NCBI GenBank assembly: GCA_963847705.1
Contig: CAWKBC010000027.1
Location: 128,001-192,000, forward strand
Direction: 5' to 3'
Length of the DNA stretch: 64,000 bases
Source of the DNA: an uncultured Pseudomonadota bacterium
Lineage (GTDB): Bacteria; Myxococcota_A; Polyangia; Fen-1088
The position numbers and the translations under genes were made by a program. Every line of letters begins with the position of its first letter. The stretch's first letter is position 1. Under the pieces are notes generated by a model. It had not been told where the DNA came from. It did no database searches and saw nothing but the letters and a program-made list of their open reading frames with translations. Shown here piece by piece: positions 44,054 to 62,006 of this stretch.

Positions 44054-44350
44054 GCTCGAGCCCGACGCCAAGATCGCGCAGCCAGCTCTGGATGTCACGA
44101 AGCGCGCGGATCCCCGGCCAACCTTTTACTTCAGGGAAACCGGCCGGAAATTACGGGCCCGTCTTCGAATCCGCTTGGACGCCTCCTTGGGCTTTGTTGA
44201 GCGATGGAAACGAAGCCTGCGCCGAGTTGGAAAAGCGCCGGGTCGATGCCGCTGACAAAGAGTTAACGCTCATTCGTCGGCGCGGAAATCGGTTGCGGGC
44301 GTTCGTTCCCCTAGCATCACAGCGAATCCGGACGAGAGGGAGGTTCGAAC

Positions 44351-47763: not shown

Positions 47764-48077
47764 CCGCCGCGGTTCAAGGAAAGCGCCACATTTCGCGGAA
47801 AATGGCTGGCGGGGCGGATGCGGGCGACTGTCCGATCAGTGATCGGGTGATCGCCGATCACGGAGGCCGGGAATGAGGGCGTTCCAGGAACGTTTTGACC
47901 GGACGGCGGCGATATACGAAGGCAAGCGGCGGCAAAACGCCGCGGAATCTCGGTCGGTGCTCACGGGAGCTGCCGAAACGCTTCAGTCGAACACCCAGCC
48001 CAGTCGAAACAACGTGATCGTGAGACTGTTTCCGGCGACGGTCGACGACCGGATGAAAGGAGGATCGTCGCGCGCGC

Positions 48078-48950
48078 TCACCGCATCGCGTACAGATCGT
48101 AGGCGTAGATGAGCTCCCTCATCCGCACCTCGCCGATACCAGCGCACTGCAGTCGGTTGAGCCAAAGGTAATCAGGATGGGCTGTCTCGATCCGGGGAGC
48201 GGTGCGCGTCGGTGCGATGGCCGGCCACCGCTTGGCGAGGAAGTTCTCATACCCGTTCTCACCGAAGTCGCAAGACCCCTGGTAGCTGGCAAAGAGAATC
48301 GCGCCCTCTTCCGTTTCGACGGTGGCGCGCACGTTCATCACGCCGATGCCGTCGCGTCGGATGATCATCCAATCGCCTCCGTCTTTGCGCACCTTTGCCC
48401 GGGCCTTGAGGCCAGTGACAGAGCCCTCGTTGGGGCTCCAAAACCAGTTGACCATGAGTCCGCCGGGCGTGACGCCCACGATTTCTGGCTCTCGCAGCGG
48501 AACGCGGATCGACGCGAGGTACTCGAGGTTGGGCGACGTTCGGTCGGAGCGGCGCCTGGGCGGAACGTTCTCGACCTCGGAGGGGAGAGAGGGGCTGGCC
48601 AGCTGAAATGAGGAGGGAAGGGAGGCAGCGGTGGCAGGATCCGGAGCGCTACGCCCCGCACAGCTGACGACGGCAACATAGCTCACGCGCTCGCCGGCCA
48701 GGAACTCAGGCAAGGTCACCCGATGATATTCGAACCCTCGGTCGAAATCGGTCCGCACCCGAAACCCCCGGGCGGATTTGACCAATCCCTGGTCGACCCG
48801 GTACCGCAACGTGAGGACGTTGCTCGGGCTCGGGGGTTGGATTCCCACAGTCACCGAGACTCCCTGGCGAGGCTGCGTGGAAGAATCGACAGGCGCGGGC
48901 GCGTCGTCGGTTCCGTACCAGAGCGTCAGCCCTTCGTTTGTGAAACGCAC
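48078..48950 (-). CDS. DUF3237-domain protein with an extra N-terminal beta domain
   Basis: C-terminal GGDWMIIRRDG...TAPRIETAHPDYLWLNRL; N-terminal LTLWYGTDDAPAP domain. Confidence 0.75.
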   Translation of the reverse strand: MRFTNEGLTLWYGTDDAPAPVDSSTQPRQGVSVTVGIQPPSPSNVLTLRYRVDQGLVKSARGFRVRTDFDRGFEYHRVTLPEFLAGERVSYVAVVSCAGRSAPDPATAASLPSSFQLASPSLPSEVENVPPRRRSDRTSPNLEYLASIRVPLREPEIVGVTPGGLMVNWFWSPNEGSVTGLKARAKVRKDGGDWMIIRRDGIGVMNVRATVETEEGAILFASYQGSCDFGENGYENFLAKRWPAIAPTRTAPRIETAHPDYLWLNRLQCAGIGEVRMRELIYAYDLYAMR

Positions 48951-48961
48951 GACCGCTCTTC

Positions 48962-51900
48962 CTAGGCCCGCGCGACGGATGCGCCGTCGGCCTCATGTGT
49001 CGAAGGCGGTGTCCCGCCCAGTCGATCGATCAGCTCGCGCGCCGCCCGAAGATCCGGCGTCGAGAAGCCCTCGGTGAAGGAGGCGTAACAGTCGGTCACC
49101 AGACTGCGTGCCGCTTCGCCGCGCCCCGTCCGTTCCCACAGCCGCGCGAGACTCGTCGTCGCCCGCAGCTCCAACATCCGCGCATTCTGATCGCGCGCCA
49201 GGAGGCGCGCGCGAGAGAAGCACACCTCGCCCTCCTCGGTCTGTTCGCGCTCGAGGAGGATCTCGCCCTTGAGTCGGTGGATCTCGGGGGCGAAGTGCAG
49301 TTCTTCCCGGGCCTCCGCCTCACTGATTTCCGCGTCGAGCGTGGCGAGCGCTTCGTCCCGGCGCCCTGTCTTCCAGAGCGAGCGGCCGAGCATCGCCATC
49401 GCGATGGTTTGGTTCAGATAGCTCCCTGTGGCCTGCCAGGCCTTGATGCCCTTTCGAATCTCGTCGATTCCCTCGTGATCTCCGCACCGCTCGACGAGCG
49501 CCCAGCCGTGGAAGATCATGGCGAAAGGAGTCCAGATCTCGAAGCTCTCCTGCTTGGCCAGACGCAGGAGATCCTCCGCGGTCTTTGCCGCCCCGTCGAC
49601 GTCGAGGTTGTAGGCACGAAGGAGAAGGCTCGCAGCGAGAGCAAACGCTTCGCTCGGATGATGCCCGAGCGTGCGTGTCAAGGCGACGCCCGATTCCACC
49701 AATGCCGGTGCCTGATCTGGATAGCCCAGCATCCAGAGACTCGAGCCGAGCATGATCCGCAGAGCCACCGACGACGAGAACTGAAAGTTGCGAACGATCT
49801 GGCGTTCGATCGCGAGATCGAACAAGAGCTGCGCCTGCTCCGCGTGCTCGCGGACCTGGAGAAACTCGCCACGATAGAAGTGACTGTAGCCCACGGCGTG
49901 GTGAGCCATCACGCGGAGCATGGGCTCCCCGCTGGCCTCGGCGAGGCGCAGCACCTCTCGGCCGGTCCCCAGCGCCTCGCGCAGTCTTCCGCGCAGGAAG
50001 TTGTTGGTCCAGAGCCCCCACCGGGAGCCGTAGGTGCTGGGAAAATCGTCGAGGAGGTCGCCGAGCTCCCGCACCCGTTTGCACGTCGCCTCGACCTCGC
50101 CCGATGCCCACCCCTTGATCGCCATGAATGCTGGAAAAAGCCCGTTCTGCAGCGCCAGCTCGCGCTCGTTCCTATCGCGGCTGAGAGGGAAGGTCATCAC
50201 GAGTCTCAGCGCGCGCTCGAAGTGTGCGATCGCCTCGCTGTTGGCGGCGCGGTCGAGCGCACGCCAGGCCGCGCGTTGCCAGTAAGCGATCGCCTCCTCG
50301 TACTGTCCCGCCTCCGTGTAATGGTGGGCGACCAGCTCGGGCTGCTTCTCGAGGACGTCGGGAAAACGCAGTCGCAGGACGTCGGCGATACGCCGGTGCT
50401 GCTCCTGCCGCGTGCTCTTGAGCATGGCTTCGTATGCCGCGTCCTGGATGAGGGCGTGCTTGAAAACGTAGCGTGAATTGGGGGGCATCCCCGATTGGTA
50501 GAGCATCTCGGCGTCGATGAGCTGACTCAACGCCCGGTCGAGAGCGCCGCCTTCGATCCCCGAGACCGCGCTCAAGATCTCGTATGAAAAATCTCGTCCG
50601 AGCACGGCGCCGATCTGCGCGACCATTTTGGTCGCGCCGAGTCGGTCGAGCCGGGCCGTCAGCGAACCCCGCAAGGTGGCAGGAATGGTGAGGACCGGCG
50701 CCTTCCCCGTGAGCTCACCCGAGCGCGCCAGGCCAGATTCACGAACGAGCTTGCTCAGCTCCTCGATGAACAGGGGGTTGCCGTCCGCACGGGCCAGAAC
50801 CTGTTGCAGCAAGTTCTCCGACAGGAGCTCGCCACCGGCGGCCCAGCGTGCAATGCGAGCCGACGAGTGTCGATCGAGGGGGATGAGCTTCTGCGGCGTG
50901 ACATAGTCGAGCCCACTCCACCAGTCTGGCAGGGCGAATTCGTGTGGCCGGAAGGTCAGCACCGCGAGGATTCGCGCGCCGCGGATGCTGTTGAGCAAGA
51001 GATCGAGCAGCTCCACTGTCGAGGGATCGGCCCAGTGGAGATCCTCGAGAATGAACAGCACGGGTTTCTGGGCGGCCCGGTTCAGCAGGACGCGAAGGAG
51101 CGCCTTTTTGATCTGCAGCTTCTCTCGTTCGGGCTCTCGTTGCTCGCTGGGCTCCGAGGGCAATGACAGCAGTCTGGCGAAGAGCGGCAGATTCCCCTCG
51201 AGCGACAGGTCATTTTGTTTGAGCCAGTCTCCGAGCTTTCGCAGCTTTTCGTCCGTTTCGGTATGGGCGCCGAGCTGCAGGATCACCCGCTCCAGCAGAT
51301 CGACGATCGGGTGAAAGGACGAGTTCCGCGCGTGGGAAGAGGCTTGGCAAGGGGTGAGCCAATGGGTCGGATCTTGCGACAAAATGTGCTCGCTCAGGGC
51401 ACGGACCAGGCGCGATTTTCCGATCCCGGGCTCGCCACCCAGGAGGACGACCTGTCCCTGTCCGTTCTGGGCCTTCTCCCAGCGGTCCCGGAGAAGGTGC
51501 ATCTCGGCCTCGCGGCCGGCCAACGGCGTCAATCCAGCAGCGCTCACCGCTTCGAGTCGCGAGCGCTTGGCGTTCTCGCCGAGCACCTCGTAGACACCGG
51601 TCGCCTGGCCAATGCCCTTGAGCTCGCGCTTGCCGAGGTCGCGCGTGACGAAATAGCCGTCGACCAAGTTGTATGTGCTCTGAGTAATCACGACCGTGTC
51701 GGGGGCGGCCACGTCCTTCAGTCGGGATGCCAGGTTCGGCGGTTCGCCGATGGCGAGAAACTCCTGTCGTTCTCCCGCGCCGACGCCACCAAAGACGACC
51801 AGACCGGTGTCGATCCCGATGCGGGCCGAGAGGGTCACGCCGCGATCGCGTTGCAACTCGGGATTGAGATGGCCAATGGCCTCGAGAATCCCGAGCCCTG

Positions 51901-52360
51901 CACGAACCGCGCGCCAGGAATCGTCTTCGTGGGCCTCGGGACAACCGAAGTAGGCCAGCAGTCCGTCACCGAGAGGCTGGGCCAAGTACCCGTCGAACCG
52001 AGCGATCACCGCGGCCCCCATCTCATGGTAGGTCTGCAGGATGTTCATCAGGTCCTCGGGATCGAGGCGGCTCGCCAGCTTGGCCGATCCCACGAGGTCA
52101 CAGAACAAGACGGCCGCCTGACGGTGCTCGGCGCGTCCGCCGTTGGAGCTCCTATGACCGCGTCGGAGCGGGCTGGGCTCCGCCCGCGGTCGAAGACCTT
52201 CTTCGTCGCCTCCTGTGCGAGCGCCGCAGTCGGAGCAGAAGTTCGCGCGCGCGGGGAGCTCTACACCACAGCTCGCGCAGTGCGCTGCCAGGGGTGTTCC
52301 GCAGTCGATGCAGAAGTGTGCCCGCGGAGCATTCTCGGCGTGACACCTTTGGCAGACCAT
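48962..52360 (-). CDS. Zinc ribbon + class III adenylate/guanylate cyclase + STAND/AAA ATPase + TPR protein
   Basis: Four CxxC motifs; [23 protein letters not shown]; Walker [35 protein letters not shown]; GGAGG RBS. Confidence 0.92.
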
Positions 52361-52757
52361 TCGGAAACCTCCCGGAGTCGACTGGCGACGACCACCGCCC
52401 CTGTTGTCAGTCCAACCAGATTCGACTCGACATGTATCACGGAATATCGGCGTCTCATAGACAGTCGCCGGCCCCTCCCTGAGAAAGGAGCCTCCATCGA
52501 ATTCAGGCGGTTCCCGGTGGTGATCGCCAATACGCCGCCGTACGGCTTCCAAATGCGAGTTGGTGGAATGTGACAACAAGAGAATGAAATAACGGAATAG
52601 GTTCGCGGTCGATCGTTCGATATCGACAAGCCGTGATGCCTTATGCCACTATCGCGTCGCCAACGCTGAGAGACAGACAGCCGTTTCCCGGGGGGGTGAG
52701 ATTGGATCGGTCGGTTCGCGTCGTCGCGCGTTTGACCTCGCTCTCGCGTGGACGCTG

Positions 52758-53390
52758 ATGCCGTACTTTCAAAGAGGCCGGCTCACCGACGGAGGACCGC
52801 CTGTCGAGGGCATCGCCGGCGCCGAGTTGCTGGCAAGCGACATCGTGGACAAGGCCGCCGCGATTCTCGATCAGGAGCAGCGCGTCCCGGCCGGCTCCGT
52901 GCCTGGAGGAATGAGCAACCCCCTCGCGCTCCTGGACGGTGCAACGGGGGCGGGAGATATTCAAAAGCAGTTGAGCCAGGCGCTGGCCGCGCTCCTCAAT
53001 GCCTTCCTGCAATCGGTTCCGATGGCACAACGGACGCCGACTGCGGTCCGACCCGCCCTGATTGGCGCAACGGTTCCGGTAATCGGGTCGGAGAGCCCGG
53101 CGAAGGCCGGAGAGACCGCCAGAGTCCAGGTGACGGTCGCCAAAGACGGGCCTGGGCCAAGCAGCCTCACTCTTTACAGTACGGACTTCGTGAGCGACAC
53201 GGGATTTCAGATTCCATCGGCGTGCGCGACGTTCTCTCCTCGATCGATCACCGTCGACGGACTGGACTCTCAGAAATCGGAAATGCGGATCGCGATTCCG
53301 GCGCAGTGCGCTCGGGGTGCGTACTCGGCGCTGGTTCAGGCCATGGGCGCCGGCCGACCGTGCGCCGTCGTTGTGTTGCAAGTTGAATAA
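52758..53390 (+). CDS. Hypothetical protein (helical N-terminus, Ig-like C-terminus); first gene of the encapsulin operon
   Basis: 210-aa ORF with coding-like composition; beta-rich C-terminus (GAYSALVQA). Confidence 0.65.
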   Translation: MPYFQRGRLTDGGPPVEGIAGAELLASDIVDKAAAILDQEQRVPAGSVPGGMSNPLALLDGATGAGDIQKQLSQALAALLNAFLQSVPMAQRTPTAVRPALIGATVPVIGSESPAKAGETARVQVTVAKDGPGPSSLTLYSTDFVSDTGFQIPSACATFSPRSITVDGLDSQKSEMRIAIPAQCARGAYSALVQAMGAGRPCAVVVLQVE

Positions 53391-53434
53391 GGATCAGAAG
53401 GCGTGACGGTAATCACGGTCGACCAGGGGGACTC

Positions 53435-54892
53435 ATGAACGAGCAGACGAACTATCCGAATTGGACGGACGAACAGTGGAGGCGGGTCACCGAGCTCGTC
53501 GCGACAGAGGCCGACAAGGCGCGCGTGGGCGCCCGGTATCTTCCCCTCTACGGCCCGGTCGACCCGTCGGTGGTGGCGGTGCCCAACTATCTGCTGGGCA
53601 ACGTCCCCAACCCTCCGTTCGCGCGGCTGAGAGCTCCCAATCGACTCGACGTCGACAGTTCTCCCGAGACCTACCTCGCGACCATCACAATCCAGATTCC
53701 GCTCGCCAACCACGAGGTGGCCGAGCCCGAGCTTCAAGCGGCGTCCGTCGCTTTTCGCCGCGCCGCCGTCACGATCGCGCGCATCGAGGACGCTCTCCTC
53801 TTCAACGGTCAGGCTGCGCCGGGCCTGGCACCGCCGCCCACCTACCCCGGAGGTTGGCTGACCGGTCTGCCGCCCGTCTACTCGGTGAACGGCGGTGGCC
53901 AGCAAGCTGGCTTGGTACCGGCGGGCGCCATGCCGAACATCCCGCCTCCCGCCGGCAGCGTCGCGCCGCGGGTCGACGTGGAACTTCCCCTGCCGGCGGG
54001 CGCGCCGGCGCAGCCTTGGACCCCTGCGGAACGAGCGGCGTTCATGGGACCATGGAGCGAGATCATCGTCCGGCATGTCAGCGACACGATCGGCCTTTTG
54101 GAGGCGAACGGGCATTCGGGCCCATTTGCCTGTTTCCTATCGCCAAATCTCTTCGAAGCGGTTCATACACCGTCGGAGGCGATGGTCTTGCCGCGAGATC
54201 GGATCCTTCCATTCCTGGGCGGCGAATACTTGTGCCGGTCGAACACCATCCCCGACGGTTACGGAATCATCGTGGGGGGGGTACCCGCATACGAGACCGA
54301 CGCCTACGGTAAGAGGCACAAGCAGAACGGCGCGGGCAGCCCGGTGGAGATTGTCGTCGCCACAGATATCTCACTCCGCTACCTCCAGCAGACACCCGAG
54401 CCCAAGTTCCTCTTCAGAATCTGGGAGAAGATCGCCCTCAGAGTGAAGGAGTGGAATGCCGTAGCCGTTCTCCGTCCCGAGTCCAATCCAGCTGGAGCGC
54501 CGGTGATGCTGCCGTCAATTAAACCGCCGCCTCCGACGGTCCACGATCTGAAGGAGCAAGTTCGGAATGCAATAGCCGGCGCACGAAAGAAGAGCCAGGA
54601 CGCGCTCTTGGAAAAGATCACAGCGCAAAAGGCGACAATTTCGAAGCACGAGATCGTGAAGGTTGCCGTCGGGAAGCATTTCGACGATCGGATCGAAATC
54701 ATTAAGAAGGGGCAGCACCACTCTCCCGAGGAGCTAGAGAAGAGCACCGCTGCGCTCGCTGCTGAGCGAGGCGCGCTTGAGGCTGAGCAGGCGGCGACGC
54801 ACTCAAAGCTCGAGAGCGAGCTGAAGCAGCTCGAAGAAGAACAAAAGCAGCTCGCGTCCGACTTGAAAATGCCGGACGATCTGGCGGATTGA
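53435..54892 (+). CDS. Encapsulin shell protein (Linocin_M18/HK97-like) with C-terminal coiled-coil extension
   Basis: WTDEQW..V...A...RVGARYLPLYGP, IARIEDALLFNG, GPFACFLSPNLFEAV, LPRDRI and VEIVVATDISLRYL...FRIWEKIALRVKE match the Family 1 encapsulin pattern. Confidence 0.75.
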   Translation: MNEQTNYPNWTDEQWRRVTELVATEADKARVGARYLPLYGPVDPSVVAVPNYLLGNVPNPPFARLRAPNRLDVDSSPETYLATITIQIPLANHEVAEPELQAASVAFRRAAVTIARIEDALLFNGQAAPGLAPPPTYPGGWLTGLPPVYSVNGGGQQAGLVPAGAMPNIPPPAGSVAPRVDVELPLPAGAPAQPWTPAERAAFMGPWSEIIVRHVSDTIGLLEANGHSGPFACFLSPNLFEAVHTPSEAMVLPRDRILPFLGGEYLCRSNTIPDGYGIIVGGVPAYETDAYGKRHKQNGAGSPVEIVVATDISLRYLQQTPEPKFLFRIWEKIALRVKEWNAVAVLRPESNPAGAPVMLPSIKPPPPTVHDLKEQVRNAIAGARKKSQDALLEKITAQKATISKHEIVKVAVGKHFDDRIEIIKKGQHHSPEELEKSTAALAAERGALEAEQAATHSKLESELKQLEEEQKQLASDLKMPDDLAD

Positions 54893-54908
54893 GCGTCACG
54901 GCGTTCCT

Positions 54909-56870
54909 TTGCCGCCCAAGGTCATAGTTCTCGGCGGTGGCGTCGCCGGGATGAGCGCGGCTCACGAGCTCGTGAGCCGCGGCTTCCAGGTCGAGGTCTA
55001 CGAGCGACGGTCGATCGCGGGAGGGAAGGCCCGCAGCTTGCCGGTCGACGGGGCGCTCGATCGCGGGCCGCCGGTTCTCGACGGCGCGGGATCACCGGGC
55101 GGCGCGCGACCGAACTGGAAGCCGTGGCTCCCGGGGGAGCACGGGTTTCGCTTCTTCCCCCGGTTCTATCAGCACGTCGTCGACACGATGTCGGGGATTC
55201 CTTACGGCAAGGGCAGCGTGGCCGACAACCTCGTCGACACGACGCGGGTTCAGGTGGCGCGATTCGACCAACCTTCTTTCTTCTTGCCGGCGCGGTTTCC
55301 GCGAGGCCTGGGCGACCTGCAGACGATCGTGCACGCCATCCTCGGGCTGCTCTCCGGCAGCATTGGATTGACGCTAGAGGAGACGGCGCGTTTCGCGACC
55401 AAGCTCTGGCAGATCTTCACCTCCTGCGACGAGCGTCGGTCGACGGAGTACGAGAAGATCAGCTGGTGGAATTTCGTCGAAGCCGACGGCGGCTCCGAGC
55501 TGTACCAGCGCTTCTTTGGCCATGGGATCACCCGGTCCTTGGTGGCGGCGAAGGCGCGCCGCGCCAGCACGAAGACCATCGGCAATATCTTTTCGCAAAT
55601 CGTCTTCGATATTCTGCGGCCAGGCCCGAGCGCCGACCGCGTCCTCAACGGGCCCACCAACGACGTCTGGATCGATCCCTGGCTCGAACACCTGACGAAG
55701 TCTGGCGTCAAGTACCAGTTCGAGGCGGAGGTGAAGCGCATCAACTGTTCGGGGGGCGTCGTTCGCAGCGCCACCATCGCCTTCGGGGGCCAAGAGGTAC
55801 AGGTCGAAGGCGACTACTTCATCGGCGCGGTCCCGGTCGAGCGGATGGCCGACCTCGTCTCCGCCGACCTCCTGGACGCCGATCCGTCGCTGGCCAATCT
55901 CGCCGTTCTCAAGGGGGCGGTCGAGTGGATGAACGGGATTCAGTTCTTCCTCACCGAGGACGTGCCGATCGCGCACGGTCACACCATCTACCTCGACTCT
56001 CCCTGGGCCATCACCTCGGTGTCCCAGCCGCAGTTTTGGACCGACCGCGACCTCGCGGACTACGGCGACGGGAAGGTCAAAGGGATTGTCTCGGTGGACA
56101 TCTCGAACTGGAACGTCGCAGGCCTGAACGGCAAGAAGGCCCGTGACTGCAGCCGCCAGGAGGTTGCCACCGAAGTTTGGGCCCAGATGAAGCGCAGCCT
56201 GAATATCGGCGACGAGGTCCTGGCGGACGAGCAGCTCCACTCGTGGTTCCTCGACCCCGACGTCGAGGCCTCCGATGACCCATCGCGACCAAGGCTCGAG
56301 GTAAACACCGAGCCGCTGCTGGTGAATTACGTGGACACCTGGCGCCTTCGCCCGGAGGCCGTGACCCGCATTCCGAACTTCTTCCTTGCGGGGGACTACG
56401 TTCGGACCACGACGGATCTGGCCACGATGGAGGCGGCCAACGAGGCAGCGAGGCGCGCGGTCAACGGCCTCCTCAAGGTGTCGTGCTCCGCGAAAGAACC
56501 CTGCCTGCTCTGGGCTCTCCACGAGCCCGAGGCGCTCGCTCCCTGGCGCGCCTACGACCGGGTCCGATTCAGGCAGGGCTTGCCGTGGGACGATCGTCTG
56601 GCGGCCGTGGCGGATCTGGCCCTCTCGGTGGCCGAGGGAACGAGGAGCCTCCTCACTCAGGGCGGTGGACCCCTCGGAGGGCTACAGGCGGTCGAACGGA
56701 GCGGGCGCGAGGTGGCTGGCATCGCCCGCGCCGAGATCGCGGGCGCGAACAGCACCGCGCTGCCCGACCTGCCGGCACGTGGAACCAGCGCGGGCCTTCC
56801 CAGTTTGGAGGCCGTCGATCCCGCTGACGGAACTCCGGGACCGCTCGTCGCCGCGACCCCACCCCCATGA
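54909..56870 (+). CDS. FAD-dependent oxidoreductase (amine oxidase / carotenoid desaturase / HpnE superfamily)
   Basis: LGGGVAGMSAA, ERRSIAGGKARS, GEHGFRFFP, FLAGDYV, ATMEAANEAARRAVN. Confidence 0.88.
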   Translation: MPPKVIVLGGGVAGMSAAHELVSRGFQVEVYERRSIAGGKARSLPVDGALDRGPPVLDGAGSPGGARPNWKPWLPGEHGFRFFPRFYQHVVDTMSGIPYGKGSVADNLVDTTRVQVARFDQPSFFLPARFPRGLGDLQTIVHAILGLLSGSIGLTLEETARFATKLWQIFTSCDERRSTEYEKISWWNFVEADGGSELYQRFFGHGITRSLVAAKARRASTKTIGNIFSQIVFDILRPGPSADRVLNGPTNDVWIDPWLEHLTKSGVKYQFEAEVKRINCSGGVVRSATIAFGGQEVQVEGDYFIGAVPVERMADLVSADLLDADPSLANLAVLKGAVEWMNGIQFFLTEDVPIAHGHTIYLDSPWAITSVSQPQFWTDRDLADYGDGKVKGIVSVDISNWNVAGLNGKKARDCSRQEVATEVWAQMKRSLNIGDEVLADEQLHSWFLDPDVEASDDPSRPRLEVNTEPLLVNYVDTWRLRPEAVTRIPNFFLAGDYVRTTTDLATMEAANEAARRAVNGLLKVSCSAKEPCLLWALHEPEALAPWRAYDRVRFRQGLPWDDRLAAVADLALSVAEGTRSLLTQGGGPLGGLQAVERSGREVAGIARAEIAGANSTALPDLPARGTSAGLPSLEAVDPADGTPGPLVAATPPP

Positions 56871-57919
56871 GCCAGCCGGACGACGCGGCGCCCGCCGAGA
56901 GCGAGTTCACCTCCAAGCTGGCCGAGTACAGGGAGCTGGTGTTGCCGATCCTCATGGCGGCTCTGCCCCAGCGTGAGCCGCGCCGTCATCTGTACGATCT
57001 CATCGGCGATTACTTCTCGCGCATCGGAAAGGGCTTGCGGCCCGCGCTCTGCATCGCGACCTGCCGCGCGTTCGGCGGCCGGGCCGAGGATGCCCTGAAG
57101 TCGGCAGCGGCTCTCGAGCTTCTTCACAACGCGTTCCTCGTTCACGACGACATTGAAGACGGCAGCGAGTCCCGTCGCGATCGACCCACCATGCACCTCG
57201 CACATGGTCTGGCGATCGCCGTCAACACCGGGGACGCCATGAACGCGCTGAGCCTGCGCCTGCTCAAGGACAACCTGCCCGTGCTGGGGGGAGCGAAGAC
57301 CTTCCGCGTCCTGCAGGAGTTCGACCACATGTTGATCGAAACCCTCGAGGGGCAGGCCATGGAGCTTGGGTGGGTGCGAGACAACGACTGTCGCGTCTCG
57401 GACCGAGACTATCTCCTCATGACGCTCAAGAAGACCTGCTGGTACAGCTTCATTCATCCGTGCCGCATCGGCGCGCTCATCGCGCGCGGCGACGACGTCG
57501 ATCTGGACGCCTTCAACCGCTTCGGGTTCTTCATGGGAGCGGCATTTCAGATCCAGGACGACGTTCTCAACCTGGTCGGTGAGGTTCGAAAATACGGAAA
57601 GGAGATCGGTGGCGACCTGTGGGAGGGCAAACGAACCCTGATCCTCGCGCACCTGTTCTCGCGTGCTGCCGCGCCGGAGCTCGAGCGCGTGCGCGCGGTG
57701 CTTGGAAAGCCTCGCGGACAGCGCTTGCAACGCGAGATTGACTGGCTCCTCTGTCGTCTCCGGGAGCACGGCAGCATCGAGTATGCACGCCAGGCCTCGC
57801 GCGACCTGATCCGCGGCGCGGCGCGCGAGTTCGATCGCGCCTACGCCGATGCGCCGGAGAGCGACGACAAAGCGTTCGTTCGTCGCTGCATCGAATACGT
57901 CGTGCAACGCGAATTGTAG
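56867..57919 (+). CDS. Polyprenyl diphosphate synthase
   Basis: GKGLRP, FARM HDDIED..RR, EGQAME, KKT, SARM FQIQDD, GGDLWEGKRT; ATGA overlap with the upstream gene. Confidence 0.93.
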   Translation: MSQPDDAAPAESEFTSKLAEYRELVLPILMAALPQREPRRHLYDLIGDYFSRIGKGLRPALCIATCRAFGGRAEDALKSAAALELLHNAFLVHDDIEDGSESRRDRPTMHLAHGLAIAVNTGDAMNALSLRLLKDNLPVLGGAKTFRVLQEFDHMLIETLEGQAMELGWVRDNDCRVSDRDYLLMTLKKTCWYSFIHPCRIGALIARGDDVDLDAFNRFGFFMGAAFQIQDDVLNLVGEVRKYGKEIGGDLWEGKRTLILAHLFSRAAAPELERVRAVLGKPRGQRLQREIDWLLCRLREHGSIEYARQASRDLIRGAAREFDRAYADAPESDDKAFVRRCIEYVVQREL

Positions 57920-57989
57920 TCCGGAGGGCCAGAAGCCTGACGTTGCTGGGGTGCGGAGGCGCCTGCCAGGTCACGGTCCGATCGTCGCG

Positions 57990-59381
57990 CTAGGGATCGT
58001 CGAGCGGTGTCGTCTCTGGAGGCGCCACCCCTCCCGTGCTCAGCCGCTTGTCGAGCTCCCGAAACCGTTCCGCCAGCGCCACAATGAACAGACCGAACGA
58101 TGTATGCAACCCGAGATTCTCCTCCAGCAACTGCCGGGGGACGACCTTGACCAGGACTTCGTCCTCGGCCTCCACGCTGGCGGTGCGGATGCCGCCCGAG
58201 AGCACCGCGGTCTCTCCGAAGACCGACCCTGCGGTCAACCGGCGCAGCACGACCCGTTGCCCGTCGACGGTCTTGTAGGCGACGCAGGTGCCCCGGACGA
58301 TGATGTAGGCGCAGTCGCCGGGGTCGCCCTCGGTCACGATCCGGGTCCCCGCCGCGAAGATCTCCGCGCTCAGCGGGAATCCGCGCAGGGTCATCTCCAC
58401 GTCCTTCTTCAGCTCGGACACCGTCTGGTACCGGTCGTTCGGATCGCGGGCCATGGCGCGCTTGACGATCCGGCAGAGGCCGAGGGGGAGGGGGGCGGTG
58501 GGATCGCCCGGGGGGAAGGTGACCACGCAGGCGGTGGCCCGGTCGAGGCAGGTGGCGACGTCTTCGCCGTCGAAGGGGGGTACGCCGGTCAGGAGGTTGT
58601 AGAGGACCGCGCCCAGGCCGAACACGTCGGTCCGTTCGTCGAACCGATCGCGCGCGCCCATCGCCTGCTCGGGCGACATGAACGACGGCGTCCCGCACGG
58701 TCCGCCCCCCACGTCGAGGTTGGCGTCCCCGGCGACGACCATGCTCGGCAGCTGGTCGGGCATGCTCCGGGCCGCCCCGACGATCGCCAGGCCCCAGTCG
58801 ACCAGGTAGACCTGGCCGAACGATCCCGCCAGGATGTTGCCCGGCTTGATGTCGCAATGCAGGACGCCGCGGCTGTGCGCGAAGGCGACCGCGTCGCAGA
58901 CCTTCACAAAGGCCGCCATCATGTCGCTCAGCACCTCGGAGAAACCGGACTGCCGTCCGGCGCGCGCGCACCAGTCGGCCAGCGTGTCCCCCTCGATCCG
59001 CTTCATCGTGAAGTAGCGGTTCCCCAGGCGATCGACGCCGATCTCGTACACGGGGGCGATGTTCGGGTGATCCAGCTGCGCCGTGATCTGGGCCTCGCGG
59101 ATGAACCGCTGGACCTCGCGCGGCCGGGCCGCCAGATCGGGGGCCAGGACCTTCATGGCGGCCACGCGCAAGAGGCCCAGATCGCGCACGGCATGAACCG
59201 ACCCCATGCCCCCCGCGCTGATCGGGTTGAGGTACTGATACCGCTCCGGCACGCTCTCGCGCGGCGTCGGCTCGGTGCCGGGTACGGGCGACGGACCCCC
59301 CTTCGCCTGCCCGGGAACTCTCGTCACCTGGTCGCCGCTGATGGTCGCCTCCTCGCCGAACTCTTGTACAACGTCGACCAT
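57990..59381 (-). CDS. Ser/Thr protein kinase with C-terminal cyclic nucleotide-binding domain
   Basis: GGMGSV, AMK, HCDIKPGN, DWG, GTPSFMSPEQ; then EGDPGDCAYII and FGETAVLSGGIRTASV. Confidence 0.92.
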   Translation of the reverse strand: MVDVVQEFGEEATISGDQVTRVPGQAKGGPSPVPGTEPTPRESVPERYQYLNPISAGGMGSVHAVRDLGLLRVAAMKVLAPDLAARPREVQRFIREAQITAQLDHPNIAPVYEIGVDRLGNRYFTMKRIEGDTLADWCARAGRQSGFSEVLSDMMAAFVKVCDAVAFAHSRGVLHCDIKPGNILAGSFGQVYLVDWGLAIVGAARSMPDQLPSMVVAGDANLDVGGGPCGTPSFMSPEQAMGARDRFDERTDVFGLGAVLYNLLTGVPPFDGEDVATCLDRATACVVTFPPGDPTAPLPLGLCRIVKRAMARDPNDRYQTVSELKKDVEMTLRGFPLSAEIFAAGTRIVTEGDPGDCAYIIVRGTCVAYKTVDGQRVVLRRLTAGSVFGETAVLSGGIRTASVEAEDEVLVKVVPRQLLEENLGLHTSFGLFIVALAERFRELDKRLSTGGVAPPETTPLDDP

Positions 59382-59477
59382 AGCTGATCGGCGGGCACAA
59401 ATGAACCGGGTCGGGGGGGGCATTTTGCACGTTCGTCATTTACAGCCTCTTCGTGGCGGTGATAATTCGGGCTGGGG

Positions 59478-60824
59478 ATGGGGAGCCAAGGGCAGAAGAC
59501 GACGATTCCCGACACCGTGCTCGCCGGCCCGAGTGGTGCGGGGAGCACGATGGCGATCCGCTGGGTCTCCCCCTCGAACGACGGTCTGCTCACACCTCTC
59601 GAGCCGGGGACGACCACGCTGGGGAGAGATCCTGGGTGCACGGCGGCGCTTCCCAGCGCCTCGGTCTCACGCCGGCACGCGGAGATTCGCTGGGCGGTCG
59701 GCGGTGCGCCCCTGCTGCTCGACCTCAACAGCACCAACGGCGTCTTCGTCAACGGGCAGGCGATCAAGAACGCCACCCTGGGCGCGCGCGATGTGGTCCG
59801 CCTCGGCGATTGGGTCGGGATCGTCGTGTCGCTGGCGGGCAACGGCTCCGAGCCCTGGAGCTTTCGCCAGCTGACGCCTGGGTATTGGGGAGGTCCCATC
59901 CTGCAATCGGCGCTGGCGCCGGCCAAGCTGGTGGCCGTCTCGGATTTGCCGGTGATCATTCAGGGCGAGACCGGCTCGGGAAAGGAGGGGGCGGCCCGCG
60001 CGATCCACGCCTGGAGCGGACGGAGGGGGGCGTTCGTGGCGCTCAACTGCGCCGCGCTCCCCGAAGCGCTCGCCGAGGCGGAGCTGTTCGGCTACCGAAA
60101 AGGGGCCTTCACCGGCGCCGAGCGGGCCAGCGCCGGCTACCTGCGCGCGGCGGAGGGGGGAACGCTGTTCCTCGACGAGATCGCCGAGCTGTCGCTGCCG
60201 ATCCAGGCCAAGCTGCTGCGCGCCGTCGAGCAGCGCGAGCTCTGCCCGCTCGGCGAGTCGACGCCGGTCGCCATCGACGTGCGGCTCCTGGCCGCCACGC
60301 AGGGCCCGCTCGGGCAGGCGGTCGCCCAGAAACGATTCCGTGGGGATCTGCTCGCGCGGCTCAGCGGCCTCACCGTCGTGATTCCGCCGCTGCGGCACCG
60401 CTCCGAGGAGATCCCCTCGCTGTTCGCCAAGATCGTGGAGCAGTTCGGCGGGCGGGACGCCGCGCCCCGCTTCGATTCCACTTTCATCGAGCGCCTCTGC
60501 ACGCACACCTGGCCCTTCAACATCCGTGAGCTCACGCTGCTCGCGCGCAGGCTGCTCGCGCTTCATCCCCACGCGGCGGTGCTCGATCACACCGTGCTGA
60601 AGGATGGCCCAGGGGCCGAGCTCGGCCTCGCCGAATCCCGGCGGACGACGCAGGAGATGCCGGCGCCCGACTCCGGGACGTTCCTGGCGGCGCTGCGCGC
60701 TCACAACGGAAACGTGAAAGCGACCGCGGAGATCCTGGGGATCAGCCGCGGTCGCGCCTATCGAATGATGGAGAAGCTCGACGCGCTCGACCTCGCCTCC
60801 CTGCGCCGAGGCGAAGGTCTTTGA
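59478..60824 (+). CDS. FHA-domain sigma54 enhancer-binding protein
   Basis: FHA motifs GR..VSRRHA..STNG; GETGSGKE, GAFTGA, FLDEI, WPFNIREL; C-terminal HTH. Confidence 0.92.
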   Translation: MGSQGQKTTIPDTVLAGPSGAGSTMAIRWVSPSNDGLLTPLEPGTTTLGRDPGCTAALPSASVSRRHAEIRWAVGGAPLLLDLNSTNGVFVNGQAIKNATLGARDVVRLGDWVGIVVSLAGNGSEPWSFRQLTPGYWGGPILQSALAPAKLVAVSDLPVIIQGETGSGKEGAARAIHAWSGRRGAFVALNCAALPEALAEAELFGYRKGAFTGAERASAGYLRAAEGGTLFLDEIAELSLPIQAKLLRAVEQRELCPLGESTPVAIDVRLLAATQGPLGQAVAQKRFRGDLLARLSGLTVVIPPLRHRSEEIPSLFAKIVEQFGGRDAAPRFDSTFIERLCTHTWPFNIRELTLLARRLLALHPHAAVLDHTVLKDGPGAELGLAESRRTTQEMPAPDSGTFLAALRAHNGNVKATAEILGISRGRAYRMMEKLDALDLASLRRGEGL

Positions 60825-60911
60825 GAGCCCCGAGATCGCGTGAGGGCGCGACGGCTTCGCCGGCTCGACCTCGTCGAGGGGGGCGCGGGACCCTGTGAGG
60901 GTCTCCCGAGA

Positions 60912-62006
60912 CTAGATACAGGCGGGCAGCATGGCGGTGACGTTGTTGCGCATCACCGTTCCGCAGGAGGGCCCGAAGGTCCAGGTGGCCGTCCCGGGGT
61001 GAGGGCCGCCGGTTCGGTTGATGACGACCGAGCCACCCGTCGGCCGGCAGCAGCCGTTGCTGCGCGTGACCCCCTGCTCGTTGATCGTCGCCGACGCCGG
61101 CCCGTTCTTCTCCTGGACGGTGGTGGTGCCGTCGACGGAGTACGAGCTGTTGCCGGAGAAGGTCACGGTGTCCATTCCGGTGTAGGTCAGATCGGCGATC
61201 ATCGTGCCGGTCGCGCTGAAGGTCTGCATCTCGCCGGTGATGTTGAAGGTCGTGGTCGTCGGCGTCTGACCGAAGGTGTAGCTGGTCATCCCCGTGTCGG
61301 TCTGCGAGGGGATCACGATCTTCCCATCCGCGTCGGAGATCGAGAGGTTGGTGATCGTCGTGGTGTGACCGAGCGTGATGGTCGTCGTGGCGCTGCAGGT
61401 CTGCTCGGACGCGGAGCGGTTGGAGAGGACGTCGAAGGTGCCGTTCAGCGTGGCGCCCGAGACCACGCAGGCGTTGAAGACCAGGGTCACGCCGTTCCGC
61501 TCCTCGGTGCTGTTGCCGCCGGCGCAGGCCGGCGTGGTGGTCTTGGGTGTGATGGTCACCTGCCCCGGGCAGACACTCTCGCCGCGGGCGAGCGCCTCGA
61601 TCACCGAGGCGATCGTCGCGCGCACGGTCGTGGCGCCGCTGCCGCCCGCGCCGCCGGCGCCGCCCGCACCTGTCGCGCCGGCCGCGCCGTTCGCCCCGGC
61701 CGTGCCGTACAAGCCGGCCACGCCGCCCAGTCCGGTGCTCGCCAGGCCGGTCGCGTCGACGCCGACCGCGGCGTAATAAAAGGCGTAGTAGTTCCAGCTG
61801 TCCGCCCAGTAGTAACCGGCGTACGAGGTGTCGACCGGGTAGTACGTCGTATAGACGTAGGGGTCATCGTAGGCGTAGGCGACCGTGGCGGTCGTGCCGT
61901 CGGTGCAGCTGCCGGCGCCGACGACGAACAACGTCAAGGCACCCATGACGGCCTGCGTCCGCCGCCCGAGAGTTCCACCGAGAGTCTTGTCGACTGATCT
62001 GTTCAT
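60912..62006 (-). CDS. Thr/Gly-rich lipoprotein
   Basis: AGSC lipobox; Tyr-rich segment; CCRPTGG and FGPSCG; AAGGAG RBS. Confidence 0.75.
   Translation of the reverse strand: MNRSVDKTLGGTLGRRTQAVMGALTLFVVGAGSCTDGTTATVAYAYDDPYVYTTYYPVDTSYAGYYWADSWNYYAFYYAAVGVDATGLASTGLGGVAGLYGTAGANGAAGATGAGGAGGAGGSGATTVRATIASVIEALARGESVCPGQVTITPKTTTPACAGGNSTEERNGVTLVFNACVVSGATLNGTFDVLSNRSASEQTCSATTTITLGHTTTITNLSISDADGKIVIPSQTDTGMTSYTFGQTPTTTTFNITGEMQTFSATGTMIADLTYTGMDTVTFSGNSSYSVDGTTTVQEKNGPASATINEQGVTRSNGCCRPTGGSVVINRTGGPHPGTATWTFGPSCGTVMRNNVTAMLPACI

Follow-up and report, generated by a model that had tools for sequence, protein, structure and literature searches.

The occurrence of a gene for an encapsulin-like protein among isoprenoid biosynthesis genes raises the question of whether its product encloses the enzymes encoded beside it. 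In the window, as we call the whole 64,000-nt stretch analyzed, four ORFs were found on the plus strand at 52758-57919, the first three set 44 and 16 bp apart and the third and fourth sharing a 4-bp ATGA overlap. The original prediction had described exactly this arrangement of four same-strand genes (gaps of 44, 16 and -4 bp) and had read it as an operon. All four genes are present, but the module extends beyond them, with additional minus-strand members at 48078-52579 and 57990-59423, and the functional unit is six to seven genes on both strands rather than a four-gene operon. As predicted, Pfam searches of the flanks (window 40-64 kb) found no genes for DyP, ferritin-like proteins or hemerythrin, and no phage genes.

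A divergent Family 1-type shell protein

The second ORF (53435-54892, plus strand) encodes a 485-aa protein with a match to Linocin_M18 (PF04454; 41.3 bits, cut-off 24.3), in agreement with the shell pattern first noted for it. The alignment was limited to residues 11-130 (positions 12-130 of the 253-position profile), i.e., the first half. The sole NCBIfam encapsulin match was encap_f1 (NF041155), at 49 bits and thus under its cut-off of 100, and the closest PDB sequence match was M. xanthus EncA (E = 4e-7, two stretches). The AF2 model (pLDDT 85.3, pTM 0.74) has a predicted HK97 fold, and the Foldseek PDB matches listed for it were all Family 1 encapsulins (E = 1e-16 to 1e-11), led by 8vjo_B (E = 1e-16), with target-length-normalized TM-scores (TMt) of 0.76-0.81 among the top-ranked matches. 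Phage capsids matched more weakly (best E = 7e-11, TMt up to 0.69), which places the shell protein nearer the encapsulins. The original prediction had proposed comparing Family 1 and Family 2 shell profiles and had staked its reading on an HK97 fold; encap_f1 alone matched, and the fold was predicted. Judged by its sequence and model, this shell protein resembles Family 1 and not Family 2, and we class it as a divergent Family 1-type encapsulin.

The shell core (residues 1-350; 53435-54484), as delimited by PF04454, AF2 and Foldseek, contains an N-terminal helix, an insertion of ~56 aa within residues 140-220 and a clade-specific insertion of ~17 aa. It is followed by a C-terminal extension (residues 369-476; 54539-54862) in which AF2 helices 369-425 and 431-476 form a long antiparallel hairpin (coiled coil). 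A length of at least 435 aa was seen in just 12 of the 120 shell homologues listed, and in a relative with 81% identity (L041) the hairpin segment is a separate 112-aa ORF 3′ of the shell stop codon. The C-terminus of Family 1 shells lies on the exterior, and by analogy we predict the hairpin to lie on the outside of the shell. This hairpin and a variant tail peptide on the flavoenzyme are peculiar to the window.

The isoprenoid enzymes and the conserved module

The two genes downstream of the shell gene had been read as a desaturase-like FAD oxidoreductase and a polyprenyl synthase, and both assignments held. The 653-aa flavoenzyme (54909-56870, plus strand, TTG start) matched Amino_oxidase/NAD_binding_8 in Pfam and belongs to the FAD-containing amine-oxidase superfamily. 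Its NCBIfam scores fell far below the equivalog cut-offs (HpnE, the top match, 85 vs. 283; PDS, 41 vs. 569). The best Foldseek PDB match to its AF2 model (pLDDT 82.6; residues 585-653 disordered) was rice PDS, 5mog (E = 4e-21, TMt 0.80), the next-best reaching E values of about 1e-17 and TMt up to 0.73. It nevertheless differs from PDS/HpnE/CrtI-type enzymes in its low identity to them (14-15%), in an extra C-terminal extension of ~95 aa and in the absence of a phytoene or squalene synthase from its locus. Across phyla, flavoenzyme homologues are 50-65% identical, and the mean column identity among 83 of them is 67%. The 350-aa protein (56867-57919, plus strand) matched PF00348 (polyprenyl_synt) at 198.5 bits, was closest among PDB sequences to T. 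thermophilus GGPP synthase 1wmw (E = 4e-53), and carries its Asp-rich motifs at residues 94 (DDIED) and 231 (DDVLN); by sequence, it is a short-chain, GGPP-synthase-like trans-prenyl diphosphate synthase. Its score against the NCBIfam Family 2 cargo model was 187 bits (cut-off 450).

Conservation of gene order had been named as a point on which the prediction could fail. Among 33 genome loci found through the shell protein, the flavoenzyme was present in 31 and the synthase in 29, and all misses were at contig edges; therefore, 29 of 29 informative loci hold both enzymes, downstream and on the same strand. The order shell - flavoenzyme - synthase recurs in Myxococcota, Alpha- and Betaproteobacteria, Acidobacteriota and Actinomycetota, counting the nine of 33 loci with a flavoenzyme-synthase fusion. 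The same site in a close relative (L008), with the same flanking genes, is occupied by a divergent copy of the whole cassette. A flavoenzyme homologue was detected in 28 of 301 genomes sampled from the phylum, whereas this shell type occurred only in two of the 301 (G000 and G066), adjoined both times by the flavoenzyme. At 19 shell-less flavoenzyme loci, no synthase, DUF3237 or cyclase partner adjoined. The gene order is far beyond chance. That the shell gene merely adjoins an isoprenoid operon, or is a leftover prophage capsid gene, in either case with no functional link, could be suspected from the DyP encapsulin operons of Streptomyces, which adjoin carotenoid genes in what appears to be coincidence; 12 of the 14 Family 1 rows listed with a PF00348 neighbor in the supplement of the 2021 census are Streptomyces DyP rows (PMC8346489). 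We regard such an explanation as effectively refuted by the neighborhood survey, given the same order in all informative loci across phyla, the absence of every partner from the shell-less flavoenzyme homologues and the lack of phage genes nearby.

Upstream of the shell gene, the minus strand encodes two further members. The 290-aa DUF3237 protein (48078-48950) consists of an N-terminal beta-rich domain of no recognized family (~135 aa) and a C-terminal DUF3237 barrel, which matched PF11578 at 74.9 bits (G000:C27:176096-176533; window 48096-48533); the PDB sequence matches were 4pux, 3c5o and 3g7g. Homologues are present in 27 of 33 shell loci, mostly between shell and flavoenzyme, and the protein is a candidate cofactor-less tailoring or cyclizing enzyme. 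The locus had been said to lack a terpene cyclase and a phytoene synthase. Squalene/phytoene synthase is indeed absent from it, the genome's four SQS_PSY genes being on other contigs, but the statement about terpene cyclases needs a caveat because the DUF3237 protein belongs to the module and may supply such a step.

The second member (48962-52579) is a 1205-aa protein in which Pfam identified zinc ribbons, a class III nucleotidyl cyclase, an AAA_16 (STAND) NTPase and TPR repeats. Its homologues (34-39% identity over about 1,000 residues) were found in 29 of 33 shell loci, the four misses being at contig starts, and an alignment of 18 homologues shows that the cyclase has kept its metal and transition-state motifs and the NTPase its Walker A motif. 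Downstream of the synthase gene, the minus strand encodes a 477-aa Ser/Thr protein kinase (57990-59423; Pkinase) with a C-terminal cNMP_binding domain. Kinase homologues with 41-92% identity lie <8 kb from the shell gene in L001, L002, L003, L005, L007, L008, L011 and L026, with weak matches in L015 and L025. This kinase likely reads the signal of the cyclase, as a lineage-specific accessory of Myxococcota. The first of the plus-strand ORFs (52758-53390) encodes a 210-aa accessory protein, originally called unknown, which found no family in Pfam, NCBIfam, PADLOC or PHROGs and only unnamed clusters in the Atlas. Two short helices of this protein are conserved, its linkers vary and it ends in an Ig-like beta-sandwich. 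Homologues occur in 13 of 33 loci, 11 of them Myxococcota-type and directly upstream of the shell, the other two in Acidobacteriota.

STAND NTPases that carry TPR sensors and cyclase domains are known from anti-phage systems, and instead of a metabolic compartment the module could be a conflict, defense or other signaling device, the STAND-cyclase guarding or employing a domesticated capsid protein while the isoprenoid enzymes serve as membrane effectors. The cyclase domain matched Pycsar PycC models in PADLOC (E = 1e-20), and the divergent copy in L008 behaves like a cassette. The PycC match, however, reflects general class III cyclase homology, and PADLOC was empty for the shell, accessory protein, DUF3237 protein and synthase; PHROGs gave zero matches for three proteins of the module, the accessory protein among them. 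The flavoenzyme column identity suggests purifying selection of the housekeeping type and not an arms race, and the shell is nearer to encapsulins than to phage capsids. We judge such a defense or signaling role to be very unlikely.

A candidate cargo-loading peptide

In the shell-specific C-terminal extension of the flavoenzyme, two helices lead into a disordered tail. Among the 120 closest homologues of the enzyme, 97 have an Arg-rich motif of the G-L-R-R-L-R-I-V type in their final 16 residues, and in 92 of the 97 an S-S-D element stands between a low-complexity linker and the motif. The window instead has G-L-P-S-L-E-A-V-D-P at residues 629-638 (56793-56822), 15 residues short of the C-terminus, where pLDDT shows a local bump to 64 within the disordered tail. 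Delimited from aligned homologue tails, this motif aligns with the Arg-rich motif of the 97; its L-P-S-L-E type was found in 10 of the 120, other or truncated tails making up the remaining 13, and the window motif is kept in a narrow clade (window, P0125-P0129) in which neighboring tail residues vary. Comparison of the 120 with the 19 shell-less flavoenzymes showed the tail to be restricted to shell-linked forms: none of the 19 has the linker and motif, and they end just past the catalytic domain or in unrelated tails. From these alignments, the window peptide appears to be a charge-swapped, degenerate variant of the family's Arg-rich C-terminal motif and a candidate cargo-loading signal. Family 1 cargo proteins have the same tail architecture, and their consensus, SDGSLGIGSLKRS, served as the search key of the 2021 census (PMC8346489).

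The shell varies along with the peptide. Peptide class agrees with shell clade, and at positions 16, 20 and 24, on one face of the shell N-terminal helix, charge shifts in step with the peptide. All 24 Arg-class shells have an acidic residue at position 24, and seven of the eight other-class shells have a non-acidic one. Phylogeny confounds this co-variation, since each peptide class corresponds to a clade. In Family 1 shells, the N-terminal helix forms part of the peptide pocket (PMC8346489). All nine fused flavoenzyme-synthase forms are devoid of the terminal motif, and the peptide therefore cannot be a universal loading signal.

That these fused forms keep the shell would also fit a scheme in which the shell assembles but the tail is read by another member, the cargo being something else, such as the accessory protein or the DUF3237 protein, or nothing at all. 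TPR domains often bind short peptides at protein termini, which makes the TPR repeats a possible reader, and the co-occurrence of the cyclase-STAND-TPR protein with the tail is as tight as that of the shell; the two conserved helices of the accessory protein and the N-terminal domain of the DUF3237 protein likewise speak for this scheme. Against this, the class-tracking charge changes fall on the very helix that binds peptides in Family 1, and the succession of catalytic domain, floppy linker and short terminal motif is what marks Family 1 cargo. Moreover, 20 of 33 loci lack the accessory protein and six lack the DUF3237 protein, so neither can be the general cargo. We consider a different tail reader unlikely. 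Somewhat better than even are the chances that the predicted shell nanocompartment packages the flavoenzyme via its tail peptide and that the GGPP-synthase-like enzyme is probably carried along. The earlier reading of a shell compartment for isoprenoid synthesis and redox tailoring is partly supported: the Family 1-like shell, the predicted HK97 fold, the conserved gene order and the cargo-type tail on the flavoenzyme agree with it, while encapsulation and product are inferred.

Related systems and proposed function

The claim of a distinct, new encapsulin class was not supported. Giessen and Silver in 2016 described a 'New' cluster of Family 1-related capsids with large surface-loop insertions, from Cyanobacteria, Proteobacteria and Actinobacteria, amid lipid/isoprenoid genes and a P-loop NTPase, three representatives of which formed 35-37 nm capsids in E. 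coli (bioRxiv 10.1101/085266). The window system shares the isoprenoid genes, the P-loop NTPase and overlapping phyla, and its shell is placed in that cluster by matching descriptions rather than sequences. Members of this shell type appear in the 2021 census as cargo-less Family 1 'Minor' (PMC8346489, supplement file 3). The system is therefore not wholly new. In its passages on the cluster, the 2016 account names no cargo, loading peptide, defined module or C-terminal coiled-coil hairpin; the flavoenzyme tail, enzyme fusions, DUF3237 protein, cyclase domain of the NTPase and cNMP-binding kinase go beyond it.

Classical Family 1 systems (M. xanthus EncA with EncB/C/D; 4pt2, 7s2t, 8vjo) gave the best sequence and fold matches to the shell and have in common with it the N-terminal helix and, for the (candidate) cargo, a peptide after a flexible C-terminal linker. 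The window shell is only about 20% identical to EncA and has the ~56 aa insertion and a coiled-coil extension of ~115 aa; its candidate cargo is an isoprenoid flavoenzyme in place of the usual iron or peroxide proteins, and the family peptide is Arg-rich (L-P-S-L-E in the window) rather than of the SDGSLGIGSLKRS type. Family 2B shells carry terpene cyclase or polyprenyl transferase cargo in 2-methylisoborneol and geosmin systems (PMC8346489; bioRxiv 10.1101/2024.04.23.590730; 10.64898/2026.07.21.739788) and share with our reading both isoprenoid chemistry in a protein shell and a link to cyclic nucleotides. In Family 2B, however, the cNMP-binding domain is part of the shell, whereas here a cyclase and a cNMP-binding kinase are encoded beside it; the shell family differs, since only encap_f1 matches and the cNMP domain is absent from the window shell. 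Family 2 cargo is thought to load via N-terminal disordered domains, in contrast to the C-terminal peptide of the window candidate.

Taken together, the module likely specifies a nanocompartment with phytoene-desaturase-like and GGPP-synthase-like enzymes under cNMP signaling. The shell protein would assemble into a closed particle, as the 'New' cluster capsids do, and the tail peptide would dock on its N-terminal helix in the manner of Family 1 targeting peptides. Inside or at the shell, the synthase may make a C20-range diphosphate, and the flavoenzyme may desaturate or oxidize a long isoprenoid chain. PDS-type desaturases use membrane-embedded substrates and quinones, and a closed protein shell therefore sits awkwardly with a flavoenzyme of PDS type. 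The DUF3237 protein could add a cofactor-less step such as cyclization, hydroalkoxylation or decarboxylation. Proteins sharing its Pfam domain include PhnH of Penicillium herquei, a prenyl-alkene hydroalkoxylase that cyclizes a prenyl side chain, and the decarboxylases PhcF/PhcG (PMC11969235, PMC9942872); as described, these are small cofactor-less barrels acting on hydrophobic substrates, and the window protein, compared through the shared domain, has in addition its ~135 aa N-terminal domain. The cyclase-STAND-TPR protein would sense a ligand and make a cyclic nucleotide, to be read in Myxococcota by the adjoining cNMP-binding kinase, and in the window's clade the shell would also display its coiled-coil hairpin outside. 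If this is true, a shell type that has been without a named cargo since 2016 gains its probable contents.

The shell protein and its C-terminal additions

The 485-aa protein encoded at 53435-54892 (+) matches Linocin_M18 (PF04454) with 41.3 bits (cut-off 24.3) over residues 11-130, corresponding to positions 12-130 of the 253 in the profile. Its nearest NCBIfam model is NF041155 (encap_f1), at 49 bits and below that model's cut-off of 100. The best sequence matches in the PDB were the EncA chains of M. xanthus (E 4e-7), which aligned in two stretches separated by an insertion of ~56 aa (shell residues 140-220 vs. EncA 147-170). An AlphaFold2 model of the shell, built on a 36-sequence alignment (pLDDT 85.3, pTM 0.74), was found to contain a core with the helix and strand order of the HK97 fold, the fold on which the original prediction depended. 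The N-terminus was modeled as a helix (residues 12-29) and not as the extended N-arm, as looked for in an HK97-type shell of this kind, and residues 369-476 formed a long helical hairpin. Among the matches listed by Foldseek against the PDB there were Family 1 encapsulin shells only, with 8vjo_B the best (E 1e-16), and the best-ranked of them had TM-scores normalized to target length (TMt) of 0.76-0.81. HK97 major capsid proteins were the matches among viral models, but they were weaker (best E 7e-11, TMt up to 0.69), and a PHROGs scan of the shell gave no match. Taken together, the profile, PDB-sequence, Foldseek, viral-model and PHROGs results suggest that the protein is a divergent Family 1-type subunit, and neither a Family 2 shell nor a phage capsid. 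A prophage capsid remnant was rejected because the shell matches encapsulins above phage capsids and nothing in PHROGs. As for Family 2, the NCBIfam scan of the shell returned encap_f1 only and a cNMP_binding domain, which is inserted in 2B shells, was not found in it, consistent with the Family 1-like character originally proposed.

A homolog search with the shell yielded 213 relatives among 8,000 candidates scored. PF04454 was present in 119 of the 120 homologs listed, most of which are 270-390 aa in length and just 12 of which reach at least 435 aa. Related shells are not uncommon, with 1,309 protein clusters at E <=1e-20 in one search seeded with the Roseiarcus shell, mostly from metagenome sources. 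A classical Family 1 encapsulin (PF04454, 287 bits) is encoded elsewhere in the genome of the window, on a different contig (G000:C30:386721-387476), which would give the organism two types of shell.

The hairpin of the window's shell is a C-terminal coiled coil of ~115 aa. In an 81%-identical metagenome relative (locus L041, 4634-6047), the shell ends after 351 residues, and a separate ORF of 112 aa, beginning 20 bp past the shell's end, encodes the hairpin. On this comparison the window's extension would be a captured small gene, or else one that was split in L041. Two listed homologs, P0008 (349 aa) and P0011 (351 aa), look like the split form. Other shells have different C-terminal add-ons where the window has its coiled coil, including a TIG/IPT Ig-like domain in homologs P0102 and P0350 (precomputed Pfam) and Gly/Thr-rich repeats in the shells of loci L019 and L028; the L013 shell likewise ends in an add-on of one of these kinds. 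In the Family 1 topology the C-terminus points outward, and by analogy these add-ons, the window's hairpin among them, would be external decorations.

The gene module and its conservation

ORF calling bore out the proposed run of four plus-strand genes, which encode a 210-aa protein (52758-53390), the shell, a 653-aa flavoenzyme with a TTG start (54909-56870; Amino_oxidase/NAD_binding_8 in Pfam) and a 350-aa prenyl synthase (56867-57919; polyprenyl_synt, PF00348). The genes are separated by spacers of 44 and 16 bp, and those for the flavoenzyme and synthase overlap by 4 bp. No Pfam match was obtained for the 210-aa protein, and an Atlas look-up placed it in unnamed clusters only. While the ORFs stood, the extent of the system had been drawn too narrowly, as the module also takes in a two-domain DUF3237 protein (48078-48950, -; PF11578), a 1205-aa protein with zinc ribbons, a cyclase domain, AAA_16 and TPR (48962-52579, -) and, in Myxococcota, a Ser/Thr kinase with a cNMP-binding domain, which in the window lies directly 3′ of the operon (57990-59423, -). 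A 178-bp spacer parts the minus-strand DUF3237 and cyclase genes from the divergent four-gene operon. A promoter and terminator scan of 47800-59600 gave sites no more numerous than in shuffled sequence. Among sequencing runs, a search listed four of soil DNA, each with a small share of matching words, and none of RNA. Just past the kinase gene is an FHA-domain sigma-54 activator (59478-60824, +) that is syntenic in loci L001 and L008 (83-90% identity). The upstream neighbors are ordinary: a fatty-acid desaturase (43097-44098, -), an amino-acid permease (44351-45742, +) and a GH6 glycoside hydrolase (46139-47620, -), the last of which is syntenic in L001.

A survey of one genome per species identified 33 loci with relatives of the window's shell: 11 Myxococcota-type, 13 from Alphaproteobacteria, two from Betaproteobacteria, three from Acidobacteriota, two from Actinomycetota, and two in single MAGs labeled Chitinophaga and Prochlorococcaceae. 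Module genes were counted by tblastn with the window's proteins together with ORF calling. The flavoenzyme was present in 31/33 loci, the synthase and the cyclase-AAA_16-TPR protein in 29/33 each, the two-domain DUF3237 protein in 27/33 and a homolog of the 210-aa protein in 13/33. All loci lacking the flavoenzyme or synthase (L020, L021, L023 and L027) end at a contig end, so both genes lie 3′ of the shell gene and on its strand in 29 of 29 informative loci. This is the conserved gene order that the original prediction asked of a neighborhood survey, and chance adjacency is effectively excluded by it. Similarly, where the cyclase protein is missing (four loci), the sequence starts no more than about 330 bp from the module's first gene. 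The system is real and conserved. Flavoenzyme identity across phyla is 50-65%, and in nine of the 33 loci the flavoenzyme and synthase are fused into one ~985-aa protein, indicating that the two are functionally tied. Eight of the Myxococcota-type loci have a kinase homolog nearby, and two from Acidobacteriota gave weak matches.

The divergent arrangement of the cyclase and DUF3237 genes is particular to the window, as are the coiled-coil hairpin on its shell and the charge-swapped form of the candidate cargo peptide described below. When L008, a close relative, was compared with window positions 52758-62000, the flanks were found to be common to both (identities of 92% for the kinase, 90% for the sigma-54 activator and 79% for the ORF after it). 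In L008 this site is occupied by a module of another clade, whose shell is 37% identical to that of the window, whose cyclase gene lies upstream in the same orientation, and whose DUF3237 gene sits between shell and flavoenzyme; the L008 assembly is a frameshift-rich, long-read one. From these alignments the difference looks like replacement of a whole cassette. An extra small ORF (~130-225 aa), absent from the window, occurs between the shell and DUF3237 genes of Myxococcota loci whose flavoenzymes have arginine-rich tails (L003:8886-9439, L004:5816-6327, L006:8880-9498, L007:8907-9328, L011:8643-9007 and L017:8862-9379). Its product is helical, with an L-L-Y-W-F-D-x-R-A motif in some copies and a Lys-rich tail in others.

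Enzymes and signaling partners

The NCBIfam models nearest to the flavoenzyme were HpnE and carotenoid desaturases, all far below their cut-offs (HpnE, 84.9 vs. 283; zeta-carotene desaturase, 50 vs. 622; phytoene desaturase [PDS], 41 vs. 569). In structure, its AlphaFold2 model came closest to the phytoene desaturase of rice (5mog; E 4e-21, TMt 0.80), with amine oxidases, oleate hydratases and CrtI-type enzymes well behind. The likeness to PDS is thus one of fold only, as the level of the equivalog profile is not reached.

The synthase matched PF00348 with 198.5 bits and possesses the two Asp-rich motifs of short-chain trans-prenyl diphosphate synthases. Its closest PDB matches were the GGPP synthases of Thermus and Pyrococcus (1wmw, E 4e-53). 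In NCBIfam, the IdsA, GGPP-synthase and Family 2 cargo models were equally near and all below cut-off, including GGPP_syn (173 vs. 500) and the Family 2 cargo model NF041169 (187.4 bits vs. 450). The first Asp-rich motif is DDIED at residue 94; the second, DDVLN (residues 231-235; window 57557-57571), has Asn in place of the last Asp of DDxxD. Since DDVLN is also found in all nine fused homologs, it is a family trait and no lesion.

Consistent with the observation that a terpene cyclase and phytoene synthase are missing, no SQS_PSY gene was detected in the window, and four were found on other contigs of the genome. This part of the original prediction has to be qualified by the DUF3237 protein, whose PF11578 match (window 48096-48533) scores 74.9 bits against a cut-off of 24; its N-terminal domain retrieved only unnamed clusters in an Atlas look-up. 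According to two reports, the DUF3237 protein PhnH cyclizes a prenyl side chain by hydroalkoxylation, and PhcF/PhcG, of the same family, are decarboxylases (PMC11969235; PMC9942872). By analogy with these activities, the window's protein may be the missing cyclase or tailoring enzyme. In locus L007 (6235-7200), a second DUF3237 paralog fused to a truncated bacterial globin (PF01152) is encoded upstream of the shell, and L008:6324-7283 is likely a second case, judging by its similar C-terminus. The fusion hints at an involvement of O2 or NO.

In the 1205-aa protein, the metal-binding and transition-state motifs of the cyclase domain and the Walker A motif of the NTPase are kept in 18 aligned homologs. 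We considered whether the module, with its cyclase and NTPase, is a defense or conflict system. A PADLOC scan returned general cyclase homology and a Rossmann-motif match, nothing more, and we regard this explanation as very improbable.

A candidate cargo peptide and its bearing on function

In the unfused, shell-linked flavoenzymes, the chain runs on past the catalytic domain through two helices and a linker of low complexity to a short conserved end. Among the 120 closest flavoenzyme homologs, 97 have a G-L-R-R-L-R-I-V-type, Arg-rich motif within the last 16 residues (Arg class), and in 92 of these 97 an S-S-D element lies just upstream of it. A charge-swapped, L-P-S-L-E-type motif was found in 10/120, and the remaining 13/120 had other variants or were truncated. 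Related Arg-rich ends were also seen in alphaproteobacterial and acidobacterial loci. The window's flavoenzyme is of the L-P-S-L-E type, with G-L-P-S-L-E-A-V-D-P at residues 629-638 and 15 more residues after it; in this protein and its nearest relatives, the motif is kept while the neighboring tail is variable. The flavoenzyme model (pLDDT 82.6) is disordered over residues 585-653, with a slight bump in confidence at the motif. A short peptide past a flexible linker is the mode by which Family 1 cargo is recognized, as described in the 2021 encapsulin census (PMC8346489).

The flavoenzyme family is far larger than the shell family (6,983 matches at E <=1e-30 among 8,000 candidates scored). 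For the reverse comparison, 301 genomes were sampled evenly across the phylum. A flavoenzyme homolog (E <=1e-50) was present in 28/301. Among these genomes the window's shell type was found only in that of the window and in G066, adjoining the flavoenzyme in both; 13 others had weaker shell matches only (E 1e-18 to 1e-5). In 19 shell-less loci that were fetched (flavoenzyme identity 35-48%), no synthase, DUF3237 or cyclase-STAND partner was found beside the flavoenzyme. The 19 enzymes end right after the catalytic domain or have unrelated tails, and linker and motif are absent. Such tail-less homologs constitute a natural negative control.

The tails were also compared with the shells in a sample of 35 shells, each matched to its flavoenzyme tail through a shared locus or through contigs of identical length. 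At shell positions 16, 20 and 24, which occupy one face of the N-terminal helix, charge varies according to peptide class. An acidic residue (Asp or Glu) occupies position 24 in 24/24 Arg-class shells and a non-acidic one in 7/8 of the L-P-S-L-E class, position 16 is Asn in 20/24 vs. Arg or Lys in 6/8, and position 20 is neutral in the Arg class vs. acidic in 6/8. In Family 1 shells, the N-terminal helix contributes to the pocket that receives the peptide, as stated in the census (PMC8346489). In a quick maximum-likelihood tree of 40 shells, unrooted in effect, the Arg class (19 rows), the fused type (4 rows) and the window's class with three unclassified shells (10 rows) each formed a clade with an SH-aLRT support of 99. 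Because peptide classes and fused type are clades, the co-variation is confounded by descent, and we treat it as a lead and not as proof.

On balance we favor, with some reserve, a reading in which the shell subunits would assemble and the tail peptide would tether the flavoenzyme in the interior, the synthase coming along through fusion or association. In the confined space, a C20-range prenyl diphosphate or longer isoprenoid would be desaturated or oxidized, the DUF3237 protein would contribute a cofactor-less step, and the STAND-cyclase, on detecting a ligand, would produce a cyclic nucleotide that acts on the kinase. Three points count against this scheme. The terminal motif is absent from the fused flavoenzyme-synthase forms, the window's own motif is degenerate and non-terminal, and PDS-type enzymes normally act at membranes with quinones. 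As the main alternative, another member of the module, for example the TPR sensor, could read the tail, with something else as the cargo. Against it, the charge changes that follow peptide class fall on the shell's N-terminal helix; we consider this alternative unlikely.

A tethered flavoenzyme would give a cargo to a shell type that is not itself new. In Giessen and Silver (2016), a fourth capsid cluster, called 'New', has no cargo named, and three of its members form 35-37 nm capsids in E. coli. Its capsids are described as carrying sizeable insertions when set against those with T=1 and T=3, and as lying in gene clusters that contain isoprenoid genes as well as a P-loop NTPase (bioRxiv 10.1101/085266). 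Its published members include A. marina B0BYJ3, M. acidiphila and Geodermatophilaceae URHB0062. The window shares these traits, with its insertion at shell residues 140-220 and a prenyl synthase, flavoenzyme and AAA_16 NTPase in the module. By this match of descriptions the window's shell would probably belong to the cluster, and the claim of a distinct encapsulin class gives way to a type already flagged in 2016. In the 2021 census, the A. marina member of 'New' is listed as Family 1 'Minor' without cargo, and two further 'Minor' entries, from Bradyrhizobium MOS001 and from a Nitrospiraceae MAG, have DUF3237 and phytoene-dehydrogenase or FAD-oxidoreductase/PF00348 neighbors (PMC8346489), the same as those of the window's module. 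The census cargo search, as given there, used the consensus SDGSLGIGSLKRS (PMC8346489), and keying on SDGSLGIGSLKRS would explain why the divergent motif of the flavoenzyme tails was missed. Our literature search found no paper in which cargo, peptide or complete module is named, although the supplement of 10.1101/085266 may show more of the cluster. Within its reach, the putative cargo and peptide, the module and its possible signaling link appear to be undescribed, and they are directly testable.

Family 1 encapsulins are known mainly for storing iron and handling peroxide, and those of Family 2 as compartments for sulfur and terpenes. A Family 1-related capsid type has been without an assigned cargo since 2016, its members still 'Minor' in the 2021 census. 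The comparative evidence now names a candidate cargo, a PDS-like flavoenzyme that frequently forms a single protein with a GGPP-type synthase, as well as a candidate loading peptide in two charge-swapped forms and a conserved signaling partner, and the cargo question becomes answerable by a few simple co-expression experiments. In its fullest form, the proposal is of a signal-coupled organelle. A shell with PDS-like flavoenzyme and GGPP synthase would make an oxidized isoprenoid, and the module's STAND-cyclase would sense this product, or else the compartment's state, and emit a cyclic-nucleotide signal read by the neighboring kinase. Shell and cargo peptide would have co-evolved by charge swap, and the shell of the window's clade would have captured a small coiled-coil gene, its product displayed as external spikes that dock the organelle. 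That all of this holds jointly is rather improbable. If the loading of the flavoenzyme is true, Family 1 shells would extend to lipid-type chemistry, and an orthogonal peptide-shell pair would be on offer for engineering.
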